Shown in pieces: positions 6,485 through 47,232 of a DNA stretch of 47,232 bases. The stretch is from an uncultured Acidobacteriota bacterium (GTDB taxonomy: Bacteria > Acidobacteriota > UBA6911): the NCBI GenBank assembly GCA_963809485.1, contig CAWEJX010000013.1, forward strand, positions 1 through 47,232, in the 5' to 3' direction. The translations under genes and the position numbers were made by a program. Each line of letters starts with the position of its first letter. Positions within the stretch are counted from its first letter, which is position 1. The notes below the pieces were generated by a model that was not told where the DNA came from, made no database searches, and saw only the letters and a program-made list of their open reading frames with translations.

Positions 6485-9450
6485 TTATTCCTTCCACTTC
6501 TCTATCTGCACCAGGCAGGTGTTGGAAGCCGTGCTGTGCGATTTTTTGATGATGGGACGGGACGATGTCAGGAGGTTGATCGTTCCTGCCCGGTCGATGG
6601 AATTTCCCGGCTCGCCCATGGGATCATAAATCGCTGAGGAACAGGCGGACTGGGCAACTCCCTGGGGCAATCGTTCCGTGATATGAGCGGCGCATACTAC
6701 CGCCCCGCGGTCGTTGAAGACCCGAACCAGGTCCTCCTGCTCGATGCCGCGTTTTTCGGCATCCTTCGTGCTGATCCGGACAATCCAGTAATAATAGCCC
6801 TTGATCAGGACACGGTGCTCTTTCACATCATTCACAATGCTGTCTTTGCCGTCCTGGTGAGTGTGGAAGGTAAAGCGAGGATGAGGAGAAAGCAGCTGCA
6901 GGGGGTACTTCTCATAAAGCTCCCTGGTATGAGGCCCTTCCCAGGAAGGTATGTATTTGCTGATAGTCGGTCTTTCCGGGTCATTCGGGTCAAACCGTTT
7001 GAGGCTGGAACAGTCAAACTCTATTTTGCCGGACTGCGTCTGGAGGCCGTCGAGATATTCCTCCGTGTAGTCGGACGGCAATGGAAAAGGCTCCGGGATA
7101 TCCTTCTTTCTTCCTTCGGCGAACCAGCGGTAGGCGCACGGAGCCTTCAGCTCCTCCCTGGCCGGCGGCACAATGTAATATCCTTTTTTCAGTAATTTCT
7201 TCCAGGAAATCACGCGGGGCAAATCCGAGGCTTGATATGTGCGCTTGCACCAGTCCAATTCCGATGCCCCTTCGGAAAAATAGGAACTCAGGCCCAGCCG
7301 CTTGGAGAGTTCGAGGAAAATCTGGTAATCGGACTTGGATTCGCCCAGGGGCTCGATGCACTTGTGCTGAAGAGTGATGATGCGGTGGTTGAGCTTGTTG
7401 AAGTTGTGGATGATATATCCCCCGGCATTGCAGGTCTCGCCGATGTCCCAGCGCTCGAAATTGGTGCAGGCTGGCAAGATGATATCGGCGAACTTTGTTT
7501 CGCCTTCCATCCAGATAGACTGGTTCACCACAAATTCCAGCTTCGGAGTCCGGTAAGCTTTTACATAGCGGTTGGTGTTGTTCATCGTGGCGATGTACGA
7601 GCCGCCGTATTTGTAGTACATTTTAATGCCGGAGTTTCCCGGAGCCGGATAGCAGAACTTGAAGAACTGGCCTTCGATAGTCTTGGTGTTGTTGGGATAG
7701 CCTTCGCTGTGGCCGTCCAGGATAGCTTCAGGGATGTTCAGCCGCGGGATTTTCTGCAAAACCGTGTTCATGGACGGCAGCTGAGACATGCGCTGGTAGA
7801 GGTAAATCGCCGACGCCGTCCCTTCGATATCGCCGGAAATGCCACCCTCGGCATAACCCGGGGAAATAGAACCGGTATCCATGCGGCGCCCCGAAGGACA
7901 TGTTGCCCATATTGATGCCGGGTTTACCGATGCCCTGCATCGCCATCAGGCAGACCATCGAACGCGCCCATTCCAGCCCGGTGGCGCAGCGGCAGGCGCC
8001 GCCCAGCTGGTTTCCTCCTCCTCCCGCGCCAAGGTAGGTCTTCTTCGTTCCCCATTCTCTGGCCAGGGCCCGGACATCTTTGGCCGGGACACCGGTTTCT
8101 CTTTCCTGCCATTCGGGCGTCTTGGGAATACCGTCTTCTTTGCCCAGGATGTAATCTTTCCACGTATCAAATCCCGTCGTGCGTGTGGCGACGTATTCTT
8201 TATCGTAAAGGTTTTCGGTTATCCAGACATAGGCGATAGCCAGGGCCATGGCGTTGCCCGTATCCGGCCGGGGCGCAAGCCATTTCCCGCCCATCAAAGC
8301 GGCGGTTGGATCGTAATAGGGATTGATGTGGACCATCTTGACGCCCAGCTCCTGCAGCCACTGGCGCCGGACGGTGCTTTCGAAGGCGCTGTAAGATCCA
8401 GGAATCGATTCCGGGTCGCTGCTCCAGAAGACCATCATTTCACAGTCTTTCAAAGCATCTTCAACCGTCCCGTATATTTCGGCGCCGCCCAGGCGCATGC
8501 TGTTTCCCCAGTGATGAGTGGCGCCCCAGAACCATCCCTCCCAGCTGTCCGGATTCGCAACGACCTGCGTGCACCCGATGAGCGTTCATAAAGCGGCGGT
8601 GTGCGCTCAAGTAGTAGCCGACATTTCCCCAGGTGTGGTGCGACGCGGTGCTGCTTATGATAGATCCGGGACCATAATCCCTTTTCACCCGCTTGATCTC
8701 ATTGGCGACGATGTCCAGGGCTTCGTCCCAGCTGATTCTCTCGTAGCCGGAGATACCCCGGTTCTCGCAGTGGCGTTCGCCCTGCGGATCGAAATCGACG
8801 CGCTTCATGGGATACAAAATTCTATCGGGAGAATAGACGGTGGATTTCAAGGAAAAACCGTAAGGAGAAAGCGTGCTTTTTCGCGGCGGAGTGAACTTTT
8901 TGCCCCTGGCATCAATCGTAAAAGACGGCGCGTCGCTTTCATCGAACTCGATGGGCGTCATCCGGATTATTTTGTCGTCTTTCACGTAAACGAACACCGG
9001 ACCGGCATTCGAGTTGTTGACGTATCTTTTGACACCCTTTCCCATATCCAGTCCGTACTGGATGTTGCCCATAAGCATCAGGCTCAGGGTTTCCATGAAC
9101 CAGCAGGTCAATTCATCCGGGCCTTTCAGAGTCAGACGGAAATTTTTCATTGCGTCTGTCTTTTTCTGCTGATCGCACCATGGAAGGAGGAGCCCGCACC
9201 CCAGGGCTGCATCGCTGAAACCCAGGCAAACATCCGGTTTGGGGTGAATACCGCTTCTCGAGATGATTTCACCCTTGCGGAAAGTGAAATATCTGCCGGC
9301 GGAATTGTCCAGGACCTTTATCTGGGCAGTAAGGTCTTTCTGCCGGAGATGAGCCTTCAACAAAGGCTGCTTCCTGGCCGCCAGCTTCATATACTGTGAC
9401 ACGGCAAACAGCTGGAGGCTGAACCTGCGATTTGAAAATCCCATAATCAC
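6485..9450 (-). CDS. DMSO-reductase-family Mo-bisPGD enzyme, pyrogallol transhydroxylase/resorcinol hydroxylase large-subunit-like, split by two frameshifts
   Basis: Three ORFs (8461-9450, 7728-8498, 6485-7882) join via shifts near 8584 and 7860. Motifs [29 protein letters not shown] (read in the shifted frame), [21 protein letters not shown]. Confidence 0.8.
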
Positions 9451-32654: not shown

Positions 32655-33048
32655 GTCAGGTACCTCCGGCAAAGCCGGAGGCCTGAAAGATTTGAACCGC
32701 TCAAACCGGTTGGACTAGTTACGCCGGTCTTGAACGATGACTTACGCGGGCAAAAGCCGATGAGGCGCTTCCGATCCCCGCAGGGGCCAGCTCTCCGCGC
32801 TGGACAGTTTTCTGCGGCGGCACTGTGGCAAGCGCCGTGCGGCAAGGAGATGAAGGATATGAGAAACCGGGCGTTTGCCACAGTGCCGCCGCAGAAAACT
32901 CCATCGGAAGCGCCTCATCGGCTTTTGCTCGCCGACCCTCGCCGAACAAATCGGCGTATGTCAGCGCTTTTATCAGCGTTTCTCAGCGTTTCAAAATACG
33001 GAGCCGTCAAACTCATTGAGTGCCCCGGCAGAGCCGGGGATTTACCAA
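32655..33048 (+). mobile_element. Longest copy of the composite non-autonomous repeat element (hairpin end, nested inverted repeat, TCAGCG module, hairpin end)
   Basis: Left part matches 1708-1845. Inverted repeats 32746-32775/32903-32932 and 32806-32836/32870-32900. TCRGCG at 32951, 32961, 32973 and 32983. Ends CCCCGGCAGAGCCGGGGATTTACC. Confidence 0.65.
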
Positions 33049-33077
33049 TGTAATTATGGAAGGAAGGGGAAGGGCAG

Positions 33078-39843: not shown

Positions 39844-39884
39844 CAAGGGGGCGGGGAGGCATTGCAGGTCTCTCCGCCCCCCTT
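39844..39884 (+). terminator. Strong GC-rich hairpin downstream of the SnoaL-like gene
   Basis: CAAGGGGGCGGGGAGGC...GTCTCTCCGCCCCCTTG inverted repeat. No U-tract, so terminator function is uncertain. Confidence 0.35.
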
Positions 39885-40140
39885 GCCCTGCAATGCACTC
39901 TGTCCGGCTGAAGCCAAAAAGGCAGTCCGGCTCCCCCATGCAATTGGGGAAACTCGTTTCCATGGAAATTTCCCAAGCCGGATATCGCCGGCAGAATCCC
40001 GGTTCCCTGCTCCAATGAATTCAGTCATTCGATCCATGAACCCCGGCCATCGCGAATCCGCTTCCGGTGAGAGTCAGGGCATATCCAGCGCTGCATGGAA
40101 ATATGGAAATCTGTCGTATATGATTTTGTATATAGGAGGA

Positions 40141-41016
40141 ATGCCAGTGAAAAATAAATACACGCGACGTGAAGCTCTGGAACTGGGGCTGGGGGCAGTT
40201 GCCCTGGGAGCATCGAGTGCGGCGATTTCATCCGCACAAACAACCCAAAAACCTGTTCCCGGAGAGGGGAATCCTGTACCTGCATTGAGCGAGTTCAATA
40301 AGTACGGGGAGGAACTGGAAACATCCTTGCTTCTGAGGACTTCCCCTGTGGCCGTAAAAATGCTGGAGAGGGAAGCGGACATCCCGAAAGGAGCTTTCCG
40401 TCCGAAAAGGGACGGAGGCTATCATATCGCCCAGTGCCAGGCCTTTGGCATGTCGCGGCGGGAAGGTAAAACCGTTGCCATGTTGAAGGAAGATCATTGG
40501 TGTCCGACGGCTCTCATCTCTTATGGAATGGTGCGGAAGCCGGATTCTATGGCGATGTATGGAGAATCTTTTGACAGCTTTGAAGTCGGGAAATATATCG
40601 GTGTGGTTACGGCGCCTCTAAAGAGCGCAACGTTTATTCCGGACGTCGTTCTTATATATTCGAATCCCGCGCAACTCAGGGGATTGCTTATGCCGATGAT
40701 GTATGGCGGTGGCGGGGCTCAGGTCAGCACCTATTTATTCCTTCCATCCTGTGCGCACAGCGTTGTGGCTCCCATGAAAACGGGAAAATACAGCGTCGTG
40801 CTTCCAGACCCCGGGGAATACCAGAGAGCTCTGACTCCGGAGGAAGAAATGATGTTCGCGGCGCCGCGGGACAAGATGCCGGCATTTATGGCAGGCTTAA
40901 AAAGGGGCGGGAAATTGTATTCCCATCGGGATCAATACATGTCCATGCACCCGGATTTTGAACAGCCGCAATTTTATAAAGATATGTTTAAGGGCTGGGG
41001 ACTGGATTCAAAATAG
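40141..41016 (+). CDS. DUF169 family protein with twin-arginine-like leader
   Basis: LRTSPVAVK, CQAFGMSRR, DHWCP, PDVVLIYSNPAQ, EEEMMF. ATG 40141 follows AGGAGG; YTRREALELGLG leader. Confidence 0.75.
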   Translation: MPVKNKYTRREALELGLGAVALGASSAAISSAQTTQKPVPGEGNPVPALSEFNKYGEELETSLLLRTSPVAVKMLEREADIPKGAFRPKRDGGYHIAQCQAFGMSRREGKTVAMLKEDHWCPTALISYGMVRKPDSMAMYGESFDSFEVGKYIGVVTAPLKSATFIPDVVLIYSNPAQLRGLLMPMMYGGGGAQVSTYLFLPSCAHSVVAPMKTGKYSVVLPDPGEYQRALTPEEEMMFAAPRDKMPAFMAGLKRGGKLYSHRDQYMSMHPDFEQPQFYKDMFKGWGLDSK

Positions 41017-41414
41017 AAATTGCCCGACAACAGATTACGGTTCCCCACTGCAATCGATAGCGCATGCCGTGTCGACAGCCTCCGGCTTTGCTCTGATTGA
41101 AGCGCGCACTTGAAACTGAGAGCAAGCTCGACGGGGTTCCGGCTGAGACGCAGGGAAGATTTGCCTTTTACCATTCTTTGAGCCGTTGAACCGTCGAGGC
41201 CTTGTATGCTGCTCAAGGATCAGGTTGTTCAAGGGTAGTTCAGAACTCTGTATGAAACGCCGGCGGTGAAACCGGTCCGTGGGGTGAAGACCGGCGAAAT
41301 CGCCCATAGGCTTGAAATCAGGAAGCCCGCATATAGTCCATGCTTCTCCCATGATTCCAGCATGGACGAGAAGATCAAGAGGCCGTCGGCCAAAGGTTGT
41401 CAAAGGAGCTGAAT

Positions 41415-42113
41415 ATGAACGAGAGCGCGGATGCACGTTTCGCCCGGATCAAGTCGCACTTCGAGCAGGAGGCGCGGGTCTTCGACAAGATGTTCTTCAA
41501 GGTGATGCCCTATTACGACGAGATGATGCAGGCCGTGGTCGAGGCAATGCCGTTCGGCCGCAACGACCGCCTGAAGATTGCCGACCTGGGGTGCGGGACT
41601 GGAAACTTGAGTCTCAAGGTACTCGAGGCTTTTCCTCGGGCGCAGTTGGTCTGCGTGGACATGGCCGAAAAGATGCTCCTTGCCAGCCGCGCCAAGCTCG
41701 CCGGCTATCCGTCGGTGCAATTCCGGCAGGCCGACATCCGCACCTTCGACTACGGAACCTACGACGCTATCGTCTCGTCCATGGTCATGCATCACATCGC
41801 TCTGCGGCAAAAGCTCGCCTTTTACCGCCGGCTGCGGCGGGCGCTTTCCCGCAAAGGCGTGCTCTTCATTATCGATATCGTGCTTTCGGCCAATCCGCAT
41901 CTGCAGGAGCTGTTCATGCAGCGCTGGAAAGATCACATGGGGGCAAGCGGCATGTCTGCCAAATGGGTCGAGGAGATGATACGGCGTCACCGAAGCGAAG
42001 ACCGGCCCCGGGATTTTGAGGCCGAGTTTGATGGCCTGCGCAAGGCCGGATTCAAGGACGTGGATGTCGTCCTGAAACGGTACAATTTCGCGGTCTACGG
42101 GGGCAGGGTGTAA
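41415..42113 (+). CDS. Class I SAM-dependent methyltransferase
   Basis: IADLGCGTG motif I, VDMAEKML, YDAIVSSMVMHH. Confidence 0.9.
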   Translation: MNESADARFARIKSHFEQEARVFDKMFFKVMPYYDEMMQAVVEAMPFGRNDRLKIADLGCGTGNLSLKVLEAFPRAQLVCVDMAEKMLLASRAKLAGYPSVQFRQADIRTFDYGTYDAIVSSMVMHHIALRQKLAFYRRLRRALSRKGVLFIIDIVLSANPHLQELFMQRWKDHMGASGMSAKWVEEMIRRHRSEDRPRDFEAEFDGLRKAGFKDVDVVLKRYNFAVYGGRV

Positions 42114-43060: not shown

Positions 43061-43810
43061 GTGCCCATGATAACTCCTGCAAAAAACGATTGGAGCATCC
43101 TGGCAAAACTAGAGCTCGACAACCCGCCCGTAGGCGTAAAATATTCGTCCAAGCCTCTGCGGGGGATTCCTAAGCTGGATAAAAAGATGTCTCTCTGTGA
43201 GATGCTCAGAGCCGCTTTCGAAGGAAACTCATTCTACGCCGCTGCGAAGTATCATGCTTGTGAGGCTGGATTGCACGTATTAGGACAAAATGAGATTGCG
43301 GAACAATATCTCAGTGGCGCCTTTGGTGCAGGATTGGAGGTTTTCCGTGACAAGCGCACTGCCCGCAAACTGTATGAATACATCCCCAGGATACCGGAAG
43401 GAGCGGTGAAATATGTCGCCCTGGCTCCTCTCAGCCGAATGGCGTTTGATCCCGACCTCCTGATTATATTGGCCGATACAAGGCAAGCCGAGATATTGCT
43501 CCGGGCTGTGAGTTACGGAACCGGGGAGATGTGGCACAGCCGCTATTCGAGTGCCATCGGTTGCGCCTGGCTTTTCGCTTATCCGCACCTGAATGGAGAG
43601 ATAAACTTTATCGCCACCGGTCTAGGTTTCGGAATGAGGCGCAGGAAATTGTTTCCGGAGGGACTGCAACTCATTTCGATTCCTTGTGATCGGCTGTCCT
43701 ATATGCTGCAAACCCTGCGGGAAATGCCCTGGGTTCCTCGCCCATACCAGGCGGGAGGACCGGAGTATGTGAAGCGCCTGCGCATAAAACTTGGCTTGGA
43801 CAAGGCGTGA
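43061..43810 (+). CDS. DUF169 family protein
   Basis: PPVGVK, LCEML, HACEAG, FDPDLLII, SAIGC. Confidence 0.75.
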   Translation: MPMITPAKNDWSILAKLELDNPPVGVKYSSKPLRGIPKLDKKMSLCEMLRAAFEGNSFYAAAKYHACEAGLHVLGQNEIAEQYLSGAFGAGLEVFRDKRTARKLYEYIPRIPEGAVKYVALAPLSRMAFDPDLLIILADTRQAEILLRAVSYGTGEMWHSRYSSAIGCAWLFAYPHLNGEINFIATGLGFGMRRRKLFPEGLQLISIPCDRLSYMLQTLREMPWVPRPYQAGGPEYVKRLRIKLGLDKA

Positions 43811-44391: not shown

Positions 44392-44925
44392 GTGAATGTG
44401 GCATACAAAGAATCCATAGGGCCGATATTCCTGATGGCAGCGCTGGCCATGTTCCTGGCTGTCGCCTGTAGCCGCCGTCCTGACGTCAGTCCTGATGCTG
44501 AAAAAACAGAAACGATTCCCCAAAACCTGCCAAAGGAGAAGGAACCACAGCCCGTTTCCTTGCCCGCCAAGCGAACAGAAACCGTAGGACACAAAGTTAA
44601 ATCCGCACAAAATTCAGCGACCGATGCTTCAGCTGATAAAACACCGACGGACCCTGCGAATAACAAAATTGACTGGGGTCGCGAAGCTGCGCTCGACGAG
44701 ATCCTCGCAATGGCAAAGAGCGGCGCGATTCAACAGATTGAGTGGCATGTGATGCCGAACATCATCCGCGCCCAAACTATCGACGGCCGGATTTTCCACA
44801 TAAAGAATGAGAACAAAGGGATCGATATACGCAACACGCTTATAAAATCCGGCATTCAGGTTGGAAAGGGCGGGATCAGCTTTCGAACATTGATCTCTGA
44901 ACCTGAGACTGGCCCCGAGGGATAG
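44392..44925 (+). CDS. Hypothetical lipoprotein
   Basis: LAVAC lipobox, low-complexity linker, small C-terminal domain. Starts 2 nt after the UxxU gene. Confidence 0.65.
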   Translation: MNVAYKESIGPIFLMAALAMFLAVACSRRPDVSPDAEKTETIPQNLPKEKEPQPVSLPAKRTETVGHKVKSAQNSATDASADKTPTDPANNKIDWGREAALDEILAMAKSGAIQQIEWHVMPNIIRAQTIDGRIFHIKNENKGIDIRNTLIKSGIQVGKGGISFRTLISEPETGPEG

Positions 44926-44983: not shown

Positions 44984-45546
44984 ATGGTGACATTCTGGGT
45001 GGATGCACTATCGATATTGTTTGCTCTCGTTGCTGTAGGCTTTGCCGTCAGGAAATGGCACATCGTAAGGGATCGTCATTGGATCCTGTCAACGATAAGG
45101 GCTGCCTTGAAGGAACCAAAAGCTTGCTGCATCGGAACCCTGGCAGGCGTTTTTTATATGGCCGTATACCTGATTCCCGGCGGGAAAGGCGGCCGAATTC
45201 ATGTGTTGTTCGGGCAGCTGATATTCAACACTTCGGCGGGCAACTGTTGACCGGCCTTTCACTGGCCCTCCTGGTGACGATTTCGATGGCCTTGTTTGTT
45301 TACGGCGTGCACGTTATGGGCTTCCCAAAATCGGGGAAAAAGGGCGGGATGGGGCTTATCGGCACTTTCCTGGCGGTGTTGGCCGCTTTTTGCCCCTGAT
45401 GACTGCCAATTTTAACGGCTCTGGGCGGAGCCGCGAGCGCTTTGTTTCTGACCTATTTTTGGAATGCATTGGCTGCACTCTCCGTAGCCTTGTTGATTCT
45501 GGGCATTTTGTACACATCCAAAGCTCTAAAGGCCAGTGAAGGCTGA
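44984..45546 (+). CDS. Membrane protein, predicted di-selenoprotein (CPUU), with one frameshift near 45240
   Basis: ORF 44984-45250 joins the frame ending LAAFCP. TGA TGA (45397-45402) is followed by LPILTALGGAASALFLTYFWNALAALSVALLILGILYTSKALKASEG* (hydrophobic helices). Hairpin at 45416-45433. Confidence 0.65.
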
Positions 45547-45644
45547 CGCTGACCTACCAATTCGCCCTAGTTTGGGGCGCATCGTCAAAAGAAACGGCAG
45601 CCTGTATGAAGGCTTCAACGAATTTCAAACAAGGGGAATTCAAT

Positions 45645-47232
45645 ATGAGAAGATCGGTCATGGGGCTTATAGCAGTTTTGATAATTTTGCCGATACTATT
45701 TTGGGCTGGCAAAATGGAGGCAGCTGCAGCTTCTCAATACACGTTAACCGTTTTAAATCCTCAAGGCCCGGTCAAAAAAGGCCGGGAACTGGCTCCCCGC
45801 CTGACAACATTGAACGGCAAGAAGGTCGCCATGTGGCTGTCCGCCACTCGCGATCAGGTATACGCCGGCAAAGGCGCGGAGCTATATGATCTCCTGGAGA
45901 AGATGCTCAAGGAAAAATTTGCGGACATCCAAATCGTGCCCTACAAGGACCTGCCTATGAAGTTTGGGCCGGAAAAGGAGGTGATGGCCGCAATCGAGAA
46001 AACCAAAGCCGATGCTGTTATAGCAGCCCTGGGCGGCTGATGAGGGGGTGACATTCTCGGCGCGATGGGTTCCATCGCTATTGCTCTCGAAGAAAAAGGC
46101 ATTCCCACCGTGACTCTATATAACGAGCGTCATGAGAAACGCTTTATGGGAACGATCCTTCCCAAAGGATATATCGATTATCCGGCAATGAATTTTGAGG
46201 AATACGACACGTTTACTTCGGAAGGCATTAAGGCGCTGGCGCCTGAGGCATTCAGTTTTGTGGTAAAAGGGCTTACCACATGGAAACCTCAGCATATGAA
46301 GCTGGCGGCAGACAAATGGATTCCCCAAAGAAAACGAGTTTTCCTACACCGCCGCGAGTTATCAAGAAGGCCAGGCCCGGTTCAACATCGATTTCCTCAA
46401 AATGGGCTGGGGTGATGGATTGCCGCTGCTGCCTCCGACGCGCAGCCGGGTCGATGCCCTGTTGAAAGGCACGCCGCTGTCTGCGTCAGAACCGTAATCG
46501 GCGCATGGGGGCCTGCCAATGCTGATTTCACAGTGGAAAAAATAGCCATTGTCGCGACCATGGCCGGCGCCGAACCGGAATACATGCCCGTAATTCTTGC
46601 GGCGTTAAAGGCCATCACCTCCGCCCGATGGGATGCCTATTTCCCCGTAATGCGAGCACCGGTTCCACTGGTGCTTGTCAACGGCCCCTATGCCCGGAAG
46701 ATAGGAATCAATTCGTCTGCAAATGCTTTTTGCCGAACCCCAAGTATCACGCCAACGGCGTGATCGGGCGGGCAATCAATTTGGCCATGGCCAGCATTCC
46801 GGGCAATGGCCGAGGCATAAAGCCTTCTAACCTGGCCGGCAATCCTGCCGCATATGCCGGAATTGTCATTGCGGAAGCGGAGGATATCGCCTCGCTGGGG
46901 TGGTTGGATCCGGTCAGCGTCCAATTGGGTTATCCCGCAGGGACCAATCTGGTTACCGTTCTCGGCATTGAAGAGATGGATATGAGCGTGGCGGGAACGA
47001 TCGCCAACCTCGTGTCTTGTATCAGCCCGCACAAGGAAATATCGGCCCAGGGACCGGAAAACCTGGGATGCCCAATATGCCGGCGCGCTCGTGATAACGG
47101 AGATGCAGCGCGTGACCGACGGCTTGATGGGAAGCAAGACCAAAGCCGATATTGCCCATGAGCTCTGGGAATCCGCTCGCATTCCGATGGATAAATTCAA
47201 TAAGCTCATCCTGACAAGTGAATTTGGGGAAC
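45645..47232 (+). CDS. Secreted UGSC-(seleno)protein-like domain fused to a GWGDGLP domain; predicted tandem Sec (GGUU); several frameshifts; runs off window
   Basis: Signal peptide, LAPRLTTLNGK, DAVIAALGG-TGA-TGA(46038-46043)-GGDILGAMGSIAIALEEKGIPTV in frame. Then, across shifts, GWGDGLPLLPPT, TVEKIAI..MAGAEPEY.PVILAA, VNGP, NGVIGRA. Confidence 0.65.

Follow-up and report, generated by a model that had tools for sequence, protein, structure and literature searches.

The locus

Contig CAWEJX010000013.1 of an uncultured Acidobacteriota bacterium (assembly GCA_963809485.1) ends in three consecutive forward-strand genes, two of which are interrupted, in frame, by a pair of adjacent TGA codons. 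This contig, C13 among the 21 contigs (6.0 Mb) of the host genome, is 47,232 nucleotides (nt) long, and its whole length is termed the window below. The first of the three genes codes for a predicted lipoprotein, the second for a predicted membrane protein, and the third for a predicted exported member of the UGSC family, the motif of which is usually written with a single selenocysteine (Sec, U) as U-G-S-C. Each TGA pair is followed, a short distance downstream, by a hairpin resembling a selenocysteine insertion sequence (SECIS). Our principal conclusion, which we hold with a probability of about 0.8, is that the two tandem-Sec genes are real and belong to a conserved cassette, of which the window carries a damaged copy. 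As judged from the sequences, the underlying biology is a two-Sec form of the known UGSC family; this form appears to go together with a membrane selenoprotein that is absent from the catalogue and of which no version with cysteine turned up. The features of the locus are collected in Table 1.

The first-pass annotation of this DNA, made from its letters alone, had noted that the open reading frames at 45606-46040 and 46065-46415 share one frame, with TGA TGA between them and a perfect 7-bp hairpin nearby. These features, as well as the peptide motifs that it named in the flanks, are indeed present, with the correction that the second TGA is separated from the ATG of the following open reading frame by seven sense codons (46044-46064) and not by six. 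The gene probably starts at 45645; the upstream ATG at 45606 reads ACG in the closest ortholog. At its other end it runs off the contig ~110 nt short of the expected stop. When the TGA pair is read through, the first TGA falls on the Sec/Cys column of the family and the second on the first x of the U-x-x-C motif.

Table 1. Features of the cassette, its surroundings and the comparison locus L033 (window positions unless marked L033)
Feature	Position	Strand	Basis
Gene 2, ~187-residue five-helix membrane protein (predicted), Cys-Pro-Sec-Sec in helix 4	44984..45546	+	Intact orthologs; structure model
In-frame TGA TGA of the membrane gene (predicted Sec-Sec)	45397..45402	+	10/10 genome loci, 42/42 metagenome loci
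SECIS-like hairpin of the membrane gene; stem CGGCTC(T)/(G)GAGCCG, G-rich loop	45416..45433	+	Pairing and covariation
Gene 3, exported long-form UGSC-family protein (predicted): signal peptide, UGSC domain, ~350-residue partner domain	45645..47232	+	Pfam PF24696; tblastn; intact ortholog frames
In-frame TGA TGA of the UGSC gene (46038-46040 and 46041-46043)	46038..46043	+	
SECIS-like hairpin of the UGSC gene; perfect 7-bp stem GCGATGG-GTT-CCATCGC, loop GTT	46062..46078	+	Pairing
Six extra bases (+2, +1, +3) next to the UGSC TGA pair	46044..46056	+	Pairwise DNA alignment with G006
Four frameshifting indels in the partner domain: +1 46323, +2 46488/46490, -1 46733, +1 47043	46323..47043	+	Comparison with G006; tblastn of paralogs
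Gene 1, small lipoprotein (predicted): lipobox Cys, variable linker, conserved ~85-residue C-terminal domain	44392..44925	+	Alignment of four orthologs, 43-84% identity
Cassette-neighbour genes of Acidobacteriota	39862-41016, 41312-42113, 43061-43810; L033 917-4829, 8777-10126		
Copies of a ~255-nt repeat	1710-1825, 32657-32771 with 32907-33057; L033 ~8466-8720		

Conservation of the tandem UGA codons

A six-frame search of 60 relatives, including 29 genomes of the same genus, recovered orthologs of the UGSC gene in 8 of these 29, with 62-87% identity and two internal TGAs in each. Seven are open frames of 582-626 codons (564-577 when counted from the start codon) and the eighth is cut by its contig. 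The first-pass annotation had allowed that the homologs might consistently be two genes split by sense stops; they proved instead to be single frames of ~565-575 codons with an internal TGA TGA. One of the seven long frames, that of G004 (locus L024), has an ambiguous base and a frameshifted 3' tail after about residue 510.

A broader scan for the membrane gene, using one genome per species, yielded 10 loci, 7 of them in genomes already covered by the six-frame search. By the titles of their records, from which the phyla of these loci were taken, the genomes are metagenome-assembled genomes (MAGs) of Acidobacteriota, apart from two that are labelled Desulfatiglandales and 'delta proteobacterium', respectively. 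A metagenome scan, the search patterns of which left both residues at the U-U positions free, added 45 further loci. All 10 genome loci have C-P-U-U in the membrane gene, and the next gene reads U-U-G-C in each of the 9 with downstream DNA. Among the metagenome loci 42 span the membrane site, with an intact C-P-U-U-x-P in 41 and a TGATGA amid frameshifts in one noisy contig, and the remaining 3 of the 45 stop short of it. The UGSC site is reached in 27 of the 45; the pattern was not found in the other 18, whose contig coordinates we read as ending before the site. In every locus with upstream DNA the membrane gene precedes the UGSC gene. The cassette is found in both Acidobacteriota and Desulfobacterota, with its three genes in a fixed order.

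Taken together, 37 loci other than the window span the TGA pair of the UGSC gene, and all of them (10/10 genome-derived and 27/27 from metagenomes) read G-G-U-U-G-C. The Cys of the U-x-x-C motif is invariant in these 37, and the codons that lead from the UGAs to the hairpin vary synonymously (GGA/GGG and TGC/TGT). The public homologs that we saw are all split or truncated at the sites of the UGA pairs.

The membrane protein displays an invariant A-A-F-C-P-U-U-x-P...T/S-A-L-G-G-A-A motif and an invariant G-G-x-G-G-R-x-H loop. The 47 codons 3' of its UGA pair, which encode helix 5 and what remains of helix 4, form an open and conserved frame, and most orthologs lack a start codon after the pair, having Leu (CTG/CTT) or Val codons instead of ATG. 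In a collection of 5.8 billion proteins its homologs form 116 clusters, with exactly ...Cys-Pro as the terminus in 114 and frameshifts in the remaining 2; none of the 116 has a Cys form or a sense codon at the U-U site. No match to this protein emerged from Pfam, NCBIfam (at E<=5, noise aside) or the sequences of the PDB, the sole Pfam trace being E1-E2_ATPase at an E-value of 2.2, which is noise. Its structure model has a predicted local distance difference test score (pLDDT) of 69.5 overall and ~55-60 around the motif, and consists of five helices with a break at the Cys-Pro of helix 4; a Foldseek search with this moderate model gave no match (best E 0.7).

Hairpins downstream of the UGA pairs

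In intact genes the two hairpins are placed alike, with the stem beginning 15-16 nt past the first UGA and 12-13 nt past the second (16 and 13 nt for the membrane hairpin), and the loop beginning 22 and 19 nt past them, respectively. In the single-UGA paralogs of the host genome, described below, the median distance from the UGA to the start of the loop is 17 nt (range 16-21 nt). The hairpin of the membrane gene is supported by covariation: all 308 of 308 pair cells are paired over 44 distinct sequences, as against 36-44% in slid controls, and compensatory changes are seen at pair 20-35 (15 G-C, 4 G-U and 25 A-U) and at pair 23-32 (42 U-A and 2 C-G). The hairpin of the UGSC gene is paired in 216 of 217 cells over 31 distinct sequences, with no covariation. 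Its variable positions, namely the second base of the loop and the base after the stem, lie outside the stem, and three synonymous positions in the stem never vary. Among the 10 genome-derived orthologs the degenerate codons within this hairpin are fixed in 4 of 4 cases, compared with 2 of 20 conserved-residue codons outside it (hypergeometric p ~0.0014). The tandem Sec proposed in the first pass is strongly supported by this combination of conservation and a hairpin at SECIS distance.

Family membership, paralogs and selenocysteine machinery

The read-through product of the window gene matches the Pfam UGSC family PF24696 over residues 49-224 with 43.1 bits (cut-off 25), covering positions 2-171 of the 172 in the profile and extending across both TGAs; an intact ortholog scores 53.5 bits against the same cut-off. 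This bears out the first-pass assignment to a UGSC-like family. The NCBIfam equivalog model NF041046, against which that annotation had suggested scoring the protein, has a cut-off of 125 bits, and the window and the ortholog reach only 24.4 and 34.5 bits; as far as profile scores tell, the protein and the short UGSC protein that stands alone are not equivalogs. The literal single-Sec motif U-G-S-C is absent from the cassette enzyme, which has U-U-G-C encoded with two UGA codons; the U/C-x-x-C pattern of the family is present as U-U-G-C in all 37 orthologous loci and missing in the window copy as assembled, which reads U-U-G-G. In intact orthologs the UGSC domain continues, in the same frame, into a partner domain of ~350 residues, and a profile search detected this domain in 3660 representatives at E<=1e-3. 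The fusion claimed from the window alone is borne out by this search and by tblastn, and is of a type known since 2008 (PMC2398784).

Profile PF24696 matches 58 places in the host genome. At 40 of the 57 loci other than the window gene a single in-frame TGA stands at G-x-U-x-x-C, mostly within open frames of ~560-660 codons, and the window copy is the only UGSC locus of this genome with two TGAs. Cys-form relatives of the fusion exist, with C-x-x-C at the motif and never C-C. A recent duplication of, or gene conversion by, a paralog was considered as the source of the window gene and rejected, the closest paralog being only ~27% identical to the window protein. A simple hydropathy heuristic assigns export-like N-termini to 37 of 49 long paralogs. 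Inspection by eye adds two further ones, C4:294047 and C12:202577, with leaders of twin-arginine-like appearance. Export hence seems, from these leader predictions, to be the rule among UGSC paralogs of this host, and the signal peptide, which had been put forward as part of a new variant, is no novelty of the window gene. The exported selenoproteome of the host is very large for one genome, with loci for instance at 47-203 kb of C12 and 67-423 kb of C4.

The host genome encodes a tRNA-Sec and a SelB (391 bits against a cut-off of 242). Both cassette genes with a TGA pair show the combination expected of a bacterial selenoprotein gene, i.e. a conserved in-frame UGA with a hairpin close downstream, in a genome with tRNA-Sec and SelB. 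Genome-wide reassignment of UGA was rejected: the same genes end in TGA stops, and tRNA-Sec and SelB are present.

Structure of the enzyme

The ortholog from G006 was modelled from an alignment of 123 sequences with a pLDDT of 90.5 and a predicted template modelling score of 0.90. Its residues ~54-214 form a generic Rossmann/flavodoxin-like sandwich, which VIA aligns with a Z-score of 10-11 and a root-mean-square deviation of ~2.9 Å over ~127 residues, tied with many unrelated folds. Sequence profiles run against the PDB gave nothing for the UGSC protein and one chance hit each (E 0.79 and 1.5) for the other two cassette proteins.

State of the window copy

All three cassette genes of the window carry frame-disturbing indels relative to G006, the reference for this comparison, whose UGSC ortholog has 92.4% DNA identity to that of the window. 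In gene 1 single bases are inserted at 44886, 44895 and 44909, disturbing its 3' end; gene 2 has lost one base near 45237-45242, which divides it between two frames, and related contigs have an extra T at 45237. In gene 3 the six extra bases beside the TGA pair change G-C-x-x into G-G-D-I-L-G, so that the assembled motif is U-U-G-G-D-I-L-G where other loci have U-U-G-C-x-x; they also shift the hairpin 6 nt farther from the UGAs, so that its loop begins 28 and 25 nt past them, beyond the distances seen in the paralogs. The lack of a resolving Cys (GG-U-U-GG), a central claim of the first pass, is best seen as an artefact or lesion of this copy, because the Cys is invariant elsewhere and its loss coincides with the local extra bases. 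The frameshifts that had been suspected downstream are real in this assembly, and the region also has an in-frame -3 at 46901-46906. Paralog proteins align over 46393-46969 in frames 3, 1, 3 and 2 successively (tblastn), which indicates that the partner domain is present in the window in frameshifted form.

Logan contigs over the locus come from two soil/wetland DNA runs and one RNA-library run; at 90-99% identity, they represent relatives of another strain than that of the window. Among the indexed runs none matches the window's own strain, the best holding 0.24 of its words. The related contigs are intact at every indel site that they cover, and the indels are present in the window assembly only. 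In particular, a contig of run X4 is without the six extra bases, and loose ends at 46045-46057, which include those of a third DNA run, read the short U-U-G-C in X1, X3 and X20. The RNA-library contigs (X20) cover 46057-46205 and 46964-47156, but such contigs are no demonstration of transcription.

Two explanations of the damage have to be weighed, of which we think it probable that the copy was mis-polished at a contig end near a high-copy repeat. With G010 and G001 as outgroups, and 524 of 566 codons usable, 13 synonymous and 13 non-synonymous substitutions fall on the window branch, and 12 and 17 on the branch of the intact G006, with 50 differences left unpolarised; these counts give no sign of relaxed selection on the window branch. 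The other explanation, to which we concede a substantial minority chance, is that the window is a genuine, recently inactivated pseudo-cassette in a lineage that has lost the system and whose three genes are decaying. It would account for indels in all three cassette genes next to an intact upstream DUF169 gene, for the absence of a second cassette copy from the genome, and for the truncated or split state of several other UGSC paralogs of the host. It does not sit well with the lack of a non-synonymous excess on the window branch, nor with the ~11 indel events beside 26 polarised substitutions. Bacterial pseudogenes usually have a far lower share of indels. Several of the indels, moreover, are clustered with a net in-frame outcome (+1+1+1 and +2+1+3) or lie in homopolymers, in the manner of consensus errors, and they occur at a contig end beside a high-copy repeat.

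A metagenome contig of 2618 bases (L085) closely resembles the window membrane gene and has many frameshifts around its TGATGA. With it the window lineage has two noisy records, a hint that some ways of sequencing or assembling DNA have difficulty with this context.

The lipoprotein gene and the neighbourhood of the cassette

The lipoprotein encoded by gene 1 found no convincing match in Pfam or NCBIfam, and its motif precedes the membrane gene in 27 of the 31 metagenome loci whose upstream sequence extends over 330 nt or more. A fourth gene upstream of the cassette is not conserved between the phyla, and the neighbours vary, including DUF169, methyltransferase, URO-D-like, radical SAM and S49 peptidase genes. 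The DUF169 gene immediately upstream in the window (43061-43810) is intact. Acidobacteriota cassettes are flanked by two DUF169 genes and genes for an S-adenosylmethionine (SAM) methyltransferase, a thioesterase and a URO-D-like protein of the methyltransferase type, which are not seen in the Desulfobacterota loci.

An element of ~255 nt is present in hundreds of copies (~70-97% identity) on nearly all contigs of the host, often in two parts (~115 and ~150 nt) that are sometimes ~135 nt apart. It looks like a miniature inverted-repeat transposable element or an element of the repetitive extragenic palindromic type. G006 has a copy just downstream of its cassette, about where the window contig breaks, and the repeat is the likely cause of that break.

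Interpretation

In the mechanism that we propose, both UGAs of each pair would be read as Sec by SelB and tRNA-Sec, with a single SECIS serving two successive codons. After insertion of the first Sec the ribosome would advance by 3 nt, and a second complex of SelB and Sec-tRNA would use the same hairpin, which would by then be as far from the codon as is typical of paralogs with one UGA. Such decoding would yield one Cys-Pro-Sec-Sec site within the membrane, at the break of helix 4, and an exported Sec-Sec-Gly-Cys on a Rossmann-like domain joined to a catalytic-looking partner domain. The membrane C-P-U-U site might then carry reducing equivalents across the membrane and re-reduce the exported U-U-G-C enzyme by a selenol/diselenide relay, much as DsbD and CcdA operate, with selenols in place of thiols. 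A diselenide is far harder to reduce than a disulfide, so the reductant would need selenium too. We propose this relay function of the membrane protein only tentatively, at somewhat under even odds. More doubtful is the complete scheme, in which Sec-Sec would be made from a single SECIS at both pairs and a diselenide would be exchanged, or a soft metal or chalcogen atom transferred, between the two sites across the inner membrane. This would amount to a trans-envelope relay based on selenium only, with a membrane component that lacks Cys-form relatives.

Several considerations weigh against our conclusions: 1) The placement of Sec-Sec at both pairs is a prediction from conservation, hairpins and machinery. 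2) We know of no natural gene in which a single bacterial SECIS is shown to direct Sec into two successive UGA codons. 3) The UGSC hairpin is invariant and therefore without compensatory support, and it also codes for a conserved peptide, A-M-G-S-I-A. 4) The relay is suggested by gene order, topology and chemistry, and a gene for a cytoplasmic reductase is absent from the cassette. 5) The model of the membrane protein is only moderate in confidence and matched no solved fold, and the partner domain, at residues ~215-566 and searched within the whole protein, found no fold match by Foldseek or VIA. 6) As to the damage, the substitution counts are small (26 and 29), and the related contigs, being ~5% diverged and of a different strain, cannot prove that the indels of the window are errors.

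A different function is conceivable for the same genes: the cassette might handle a soft metal or metalloid (Hg, As, Cu, Cd) or a chalcogen (S0/Se0), which would pass from the exported U-U-G-C to the membrane C-P-U-U in the fashion of MerP and MerT. P1B ATPases bind their metal within the membrane at a Cys-Pro-x sequence of a helix, and MerT and MerF are characterised by helices with vicinal Cys pairs. The likeness of the C-P-U-U helix to these sites, the invariant G-G-x-G-G-R-x-H loop of the membrane protein and the matched U-U in both partners, which suggests direct hand-over between ligands, all speak for such a role, as do the Sec metal-binding proteins and the putative mercuric transporter listed in a 2026 inventory of selenoproteins (PMC13188914, Table 1). 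We nevertheless consider it unlikely, since the membrane protein matches no profile of MerT, MerC, HMA or P-type ATPases, the cassette has no reductase, lyase or efflux gene as a conserved neighbour, and the UGSC family, with ~50 paralogs in the host genome, otherwise resembles a redox family of the U-x-x-C type.

The remaining alternatives deny the second Sec, or both. The first UGA might be read as Sec and the second as a true stop, giving short products that end in Sec, with the downstream parts expressed separately or left untranslated. Precedents are the 'UXX-star' and 'KCU-star' selenoproteins, which end one to three residues after Sec (PMC13188914, Table 1), and in the UGSC gene an ATG does lie five codons 3' of the pair. 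Yet the Pfam domain spans the UGSC pair, the Cys of U-x-x-C, which lies 3' of it, is invariant amid synonymous variation, the whole frame of 565-575 codons is open in every ortholog, and the 47 codons after the membrane pair are conserved, mostly with no ATG; we regard premature termination of this kind as very improbable. That TGA TGA is an ordinary double stop between separate genes, with a coincidental hairpin, is close to negligible even though TGATGA is a common gene end and gene callers split every homolog there, for the pair lies exactly at the Sec column of a known selenoprotein family, the frame 3' of the membrane pair is conserved although it lacks a start codon, compensatory changes occur in the membrane hairpin and fixed synonymous sites in the UGSC stem, and the Sec machinery is present.

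Significance and comparison with known systems

If decoded as proposed, the adjacent UGA pairs in two neighbouring genes, in two phyla and with one hairpin each, constitute a natural test of whether one SECIS and SelB can serve two codons, and of how much spacing they tolerate. Nearly all selenoprotein families have Cys-form relatives, and the membrane protein has none in its 116 clusters, which argues that a vicinal diselenol next to Cys-Pro in a helix may perform chemistry that sulfur cannot. UGSC is among the most abundant selenoprotein families in the environment, and the cassette, a small and portable three-gene unit in which it is joined to dedicated partners, offers an approach to its function.

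The UGSC-containing protein and its fusion with the domain called Unknown_1 were described in 2008 by Zhang and Gladyshev (PMC2398784). The cassette enzyme agrees with the family, as represented by PF24696, NF041046 and that account, in its N-terminal domain, its Sec column, the Cys three residues on, the ~350-residue fusion and the SECIS just downstream. It differs in its second Sec, at the first x of the motif (U-U-G-C versus U-G-S-C), and in being always accompanied by its own membrane and lipoprotein partners.

The table of the 2026 review comprises 119 prokaryotic selenoprotein families, with UGSC entered with one Sec (PMC13188914). Its multi-Sec motifs are U-x-x-U (Prx-like, the metal-binding NF041115 and FmdB-like), U-x-x-x-x-U (TsoB) and a double C-U (MbdU); no U-U motif is entered among the 119 (PMC13188914), with the limit that a motif given only in the text or supplements of the source papers would escape this comparison. 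Those proteins likewise have two Sec in one short motif and, from what the review tabulates, belong to anaerobes rich in selenoproteins (PMC13188914). Their Sec residues are separated, whereas those of the cassette would be adjacent, so that the two UGAs must share one SECIS at spacings that differ by 3 nt. Full-text literature searches on neighbouring Sec residues or UGA codons returned nothing relevant.

DsbD and CcdA are transmembrane thiol relays. The cassette membrane protein resembles these, as well as MerT, MerF and the P1B ATPases, in having predicted reactive chalcogens beside a proline in a membrane helix and an exported partner with a matching motif. It differs from all of them in its five helices, in the three reactive residues concentrated in one helix, and in the predicted use of Sec rather than Cys, with no Cys form among its clusters; the profile searches and the Foldseek search with its moderate model gave no sequence or fold match. 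Finally, the cassette hairpins are similar to the SECIS of Escherichia coli fdhF type in being short and G+C-rich, with G/U in the loop, and in lying within the coding sequence at a fixed short distance 3' of the UGA. The distinguishing feature is that each would serve two adjacent UGAs, of which the second stands at a paralog-like 19 nt from the loop and the first 3 nt farther away.

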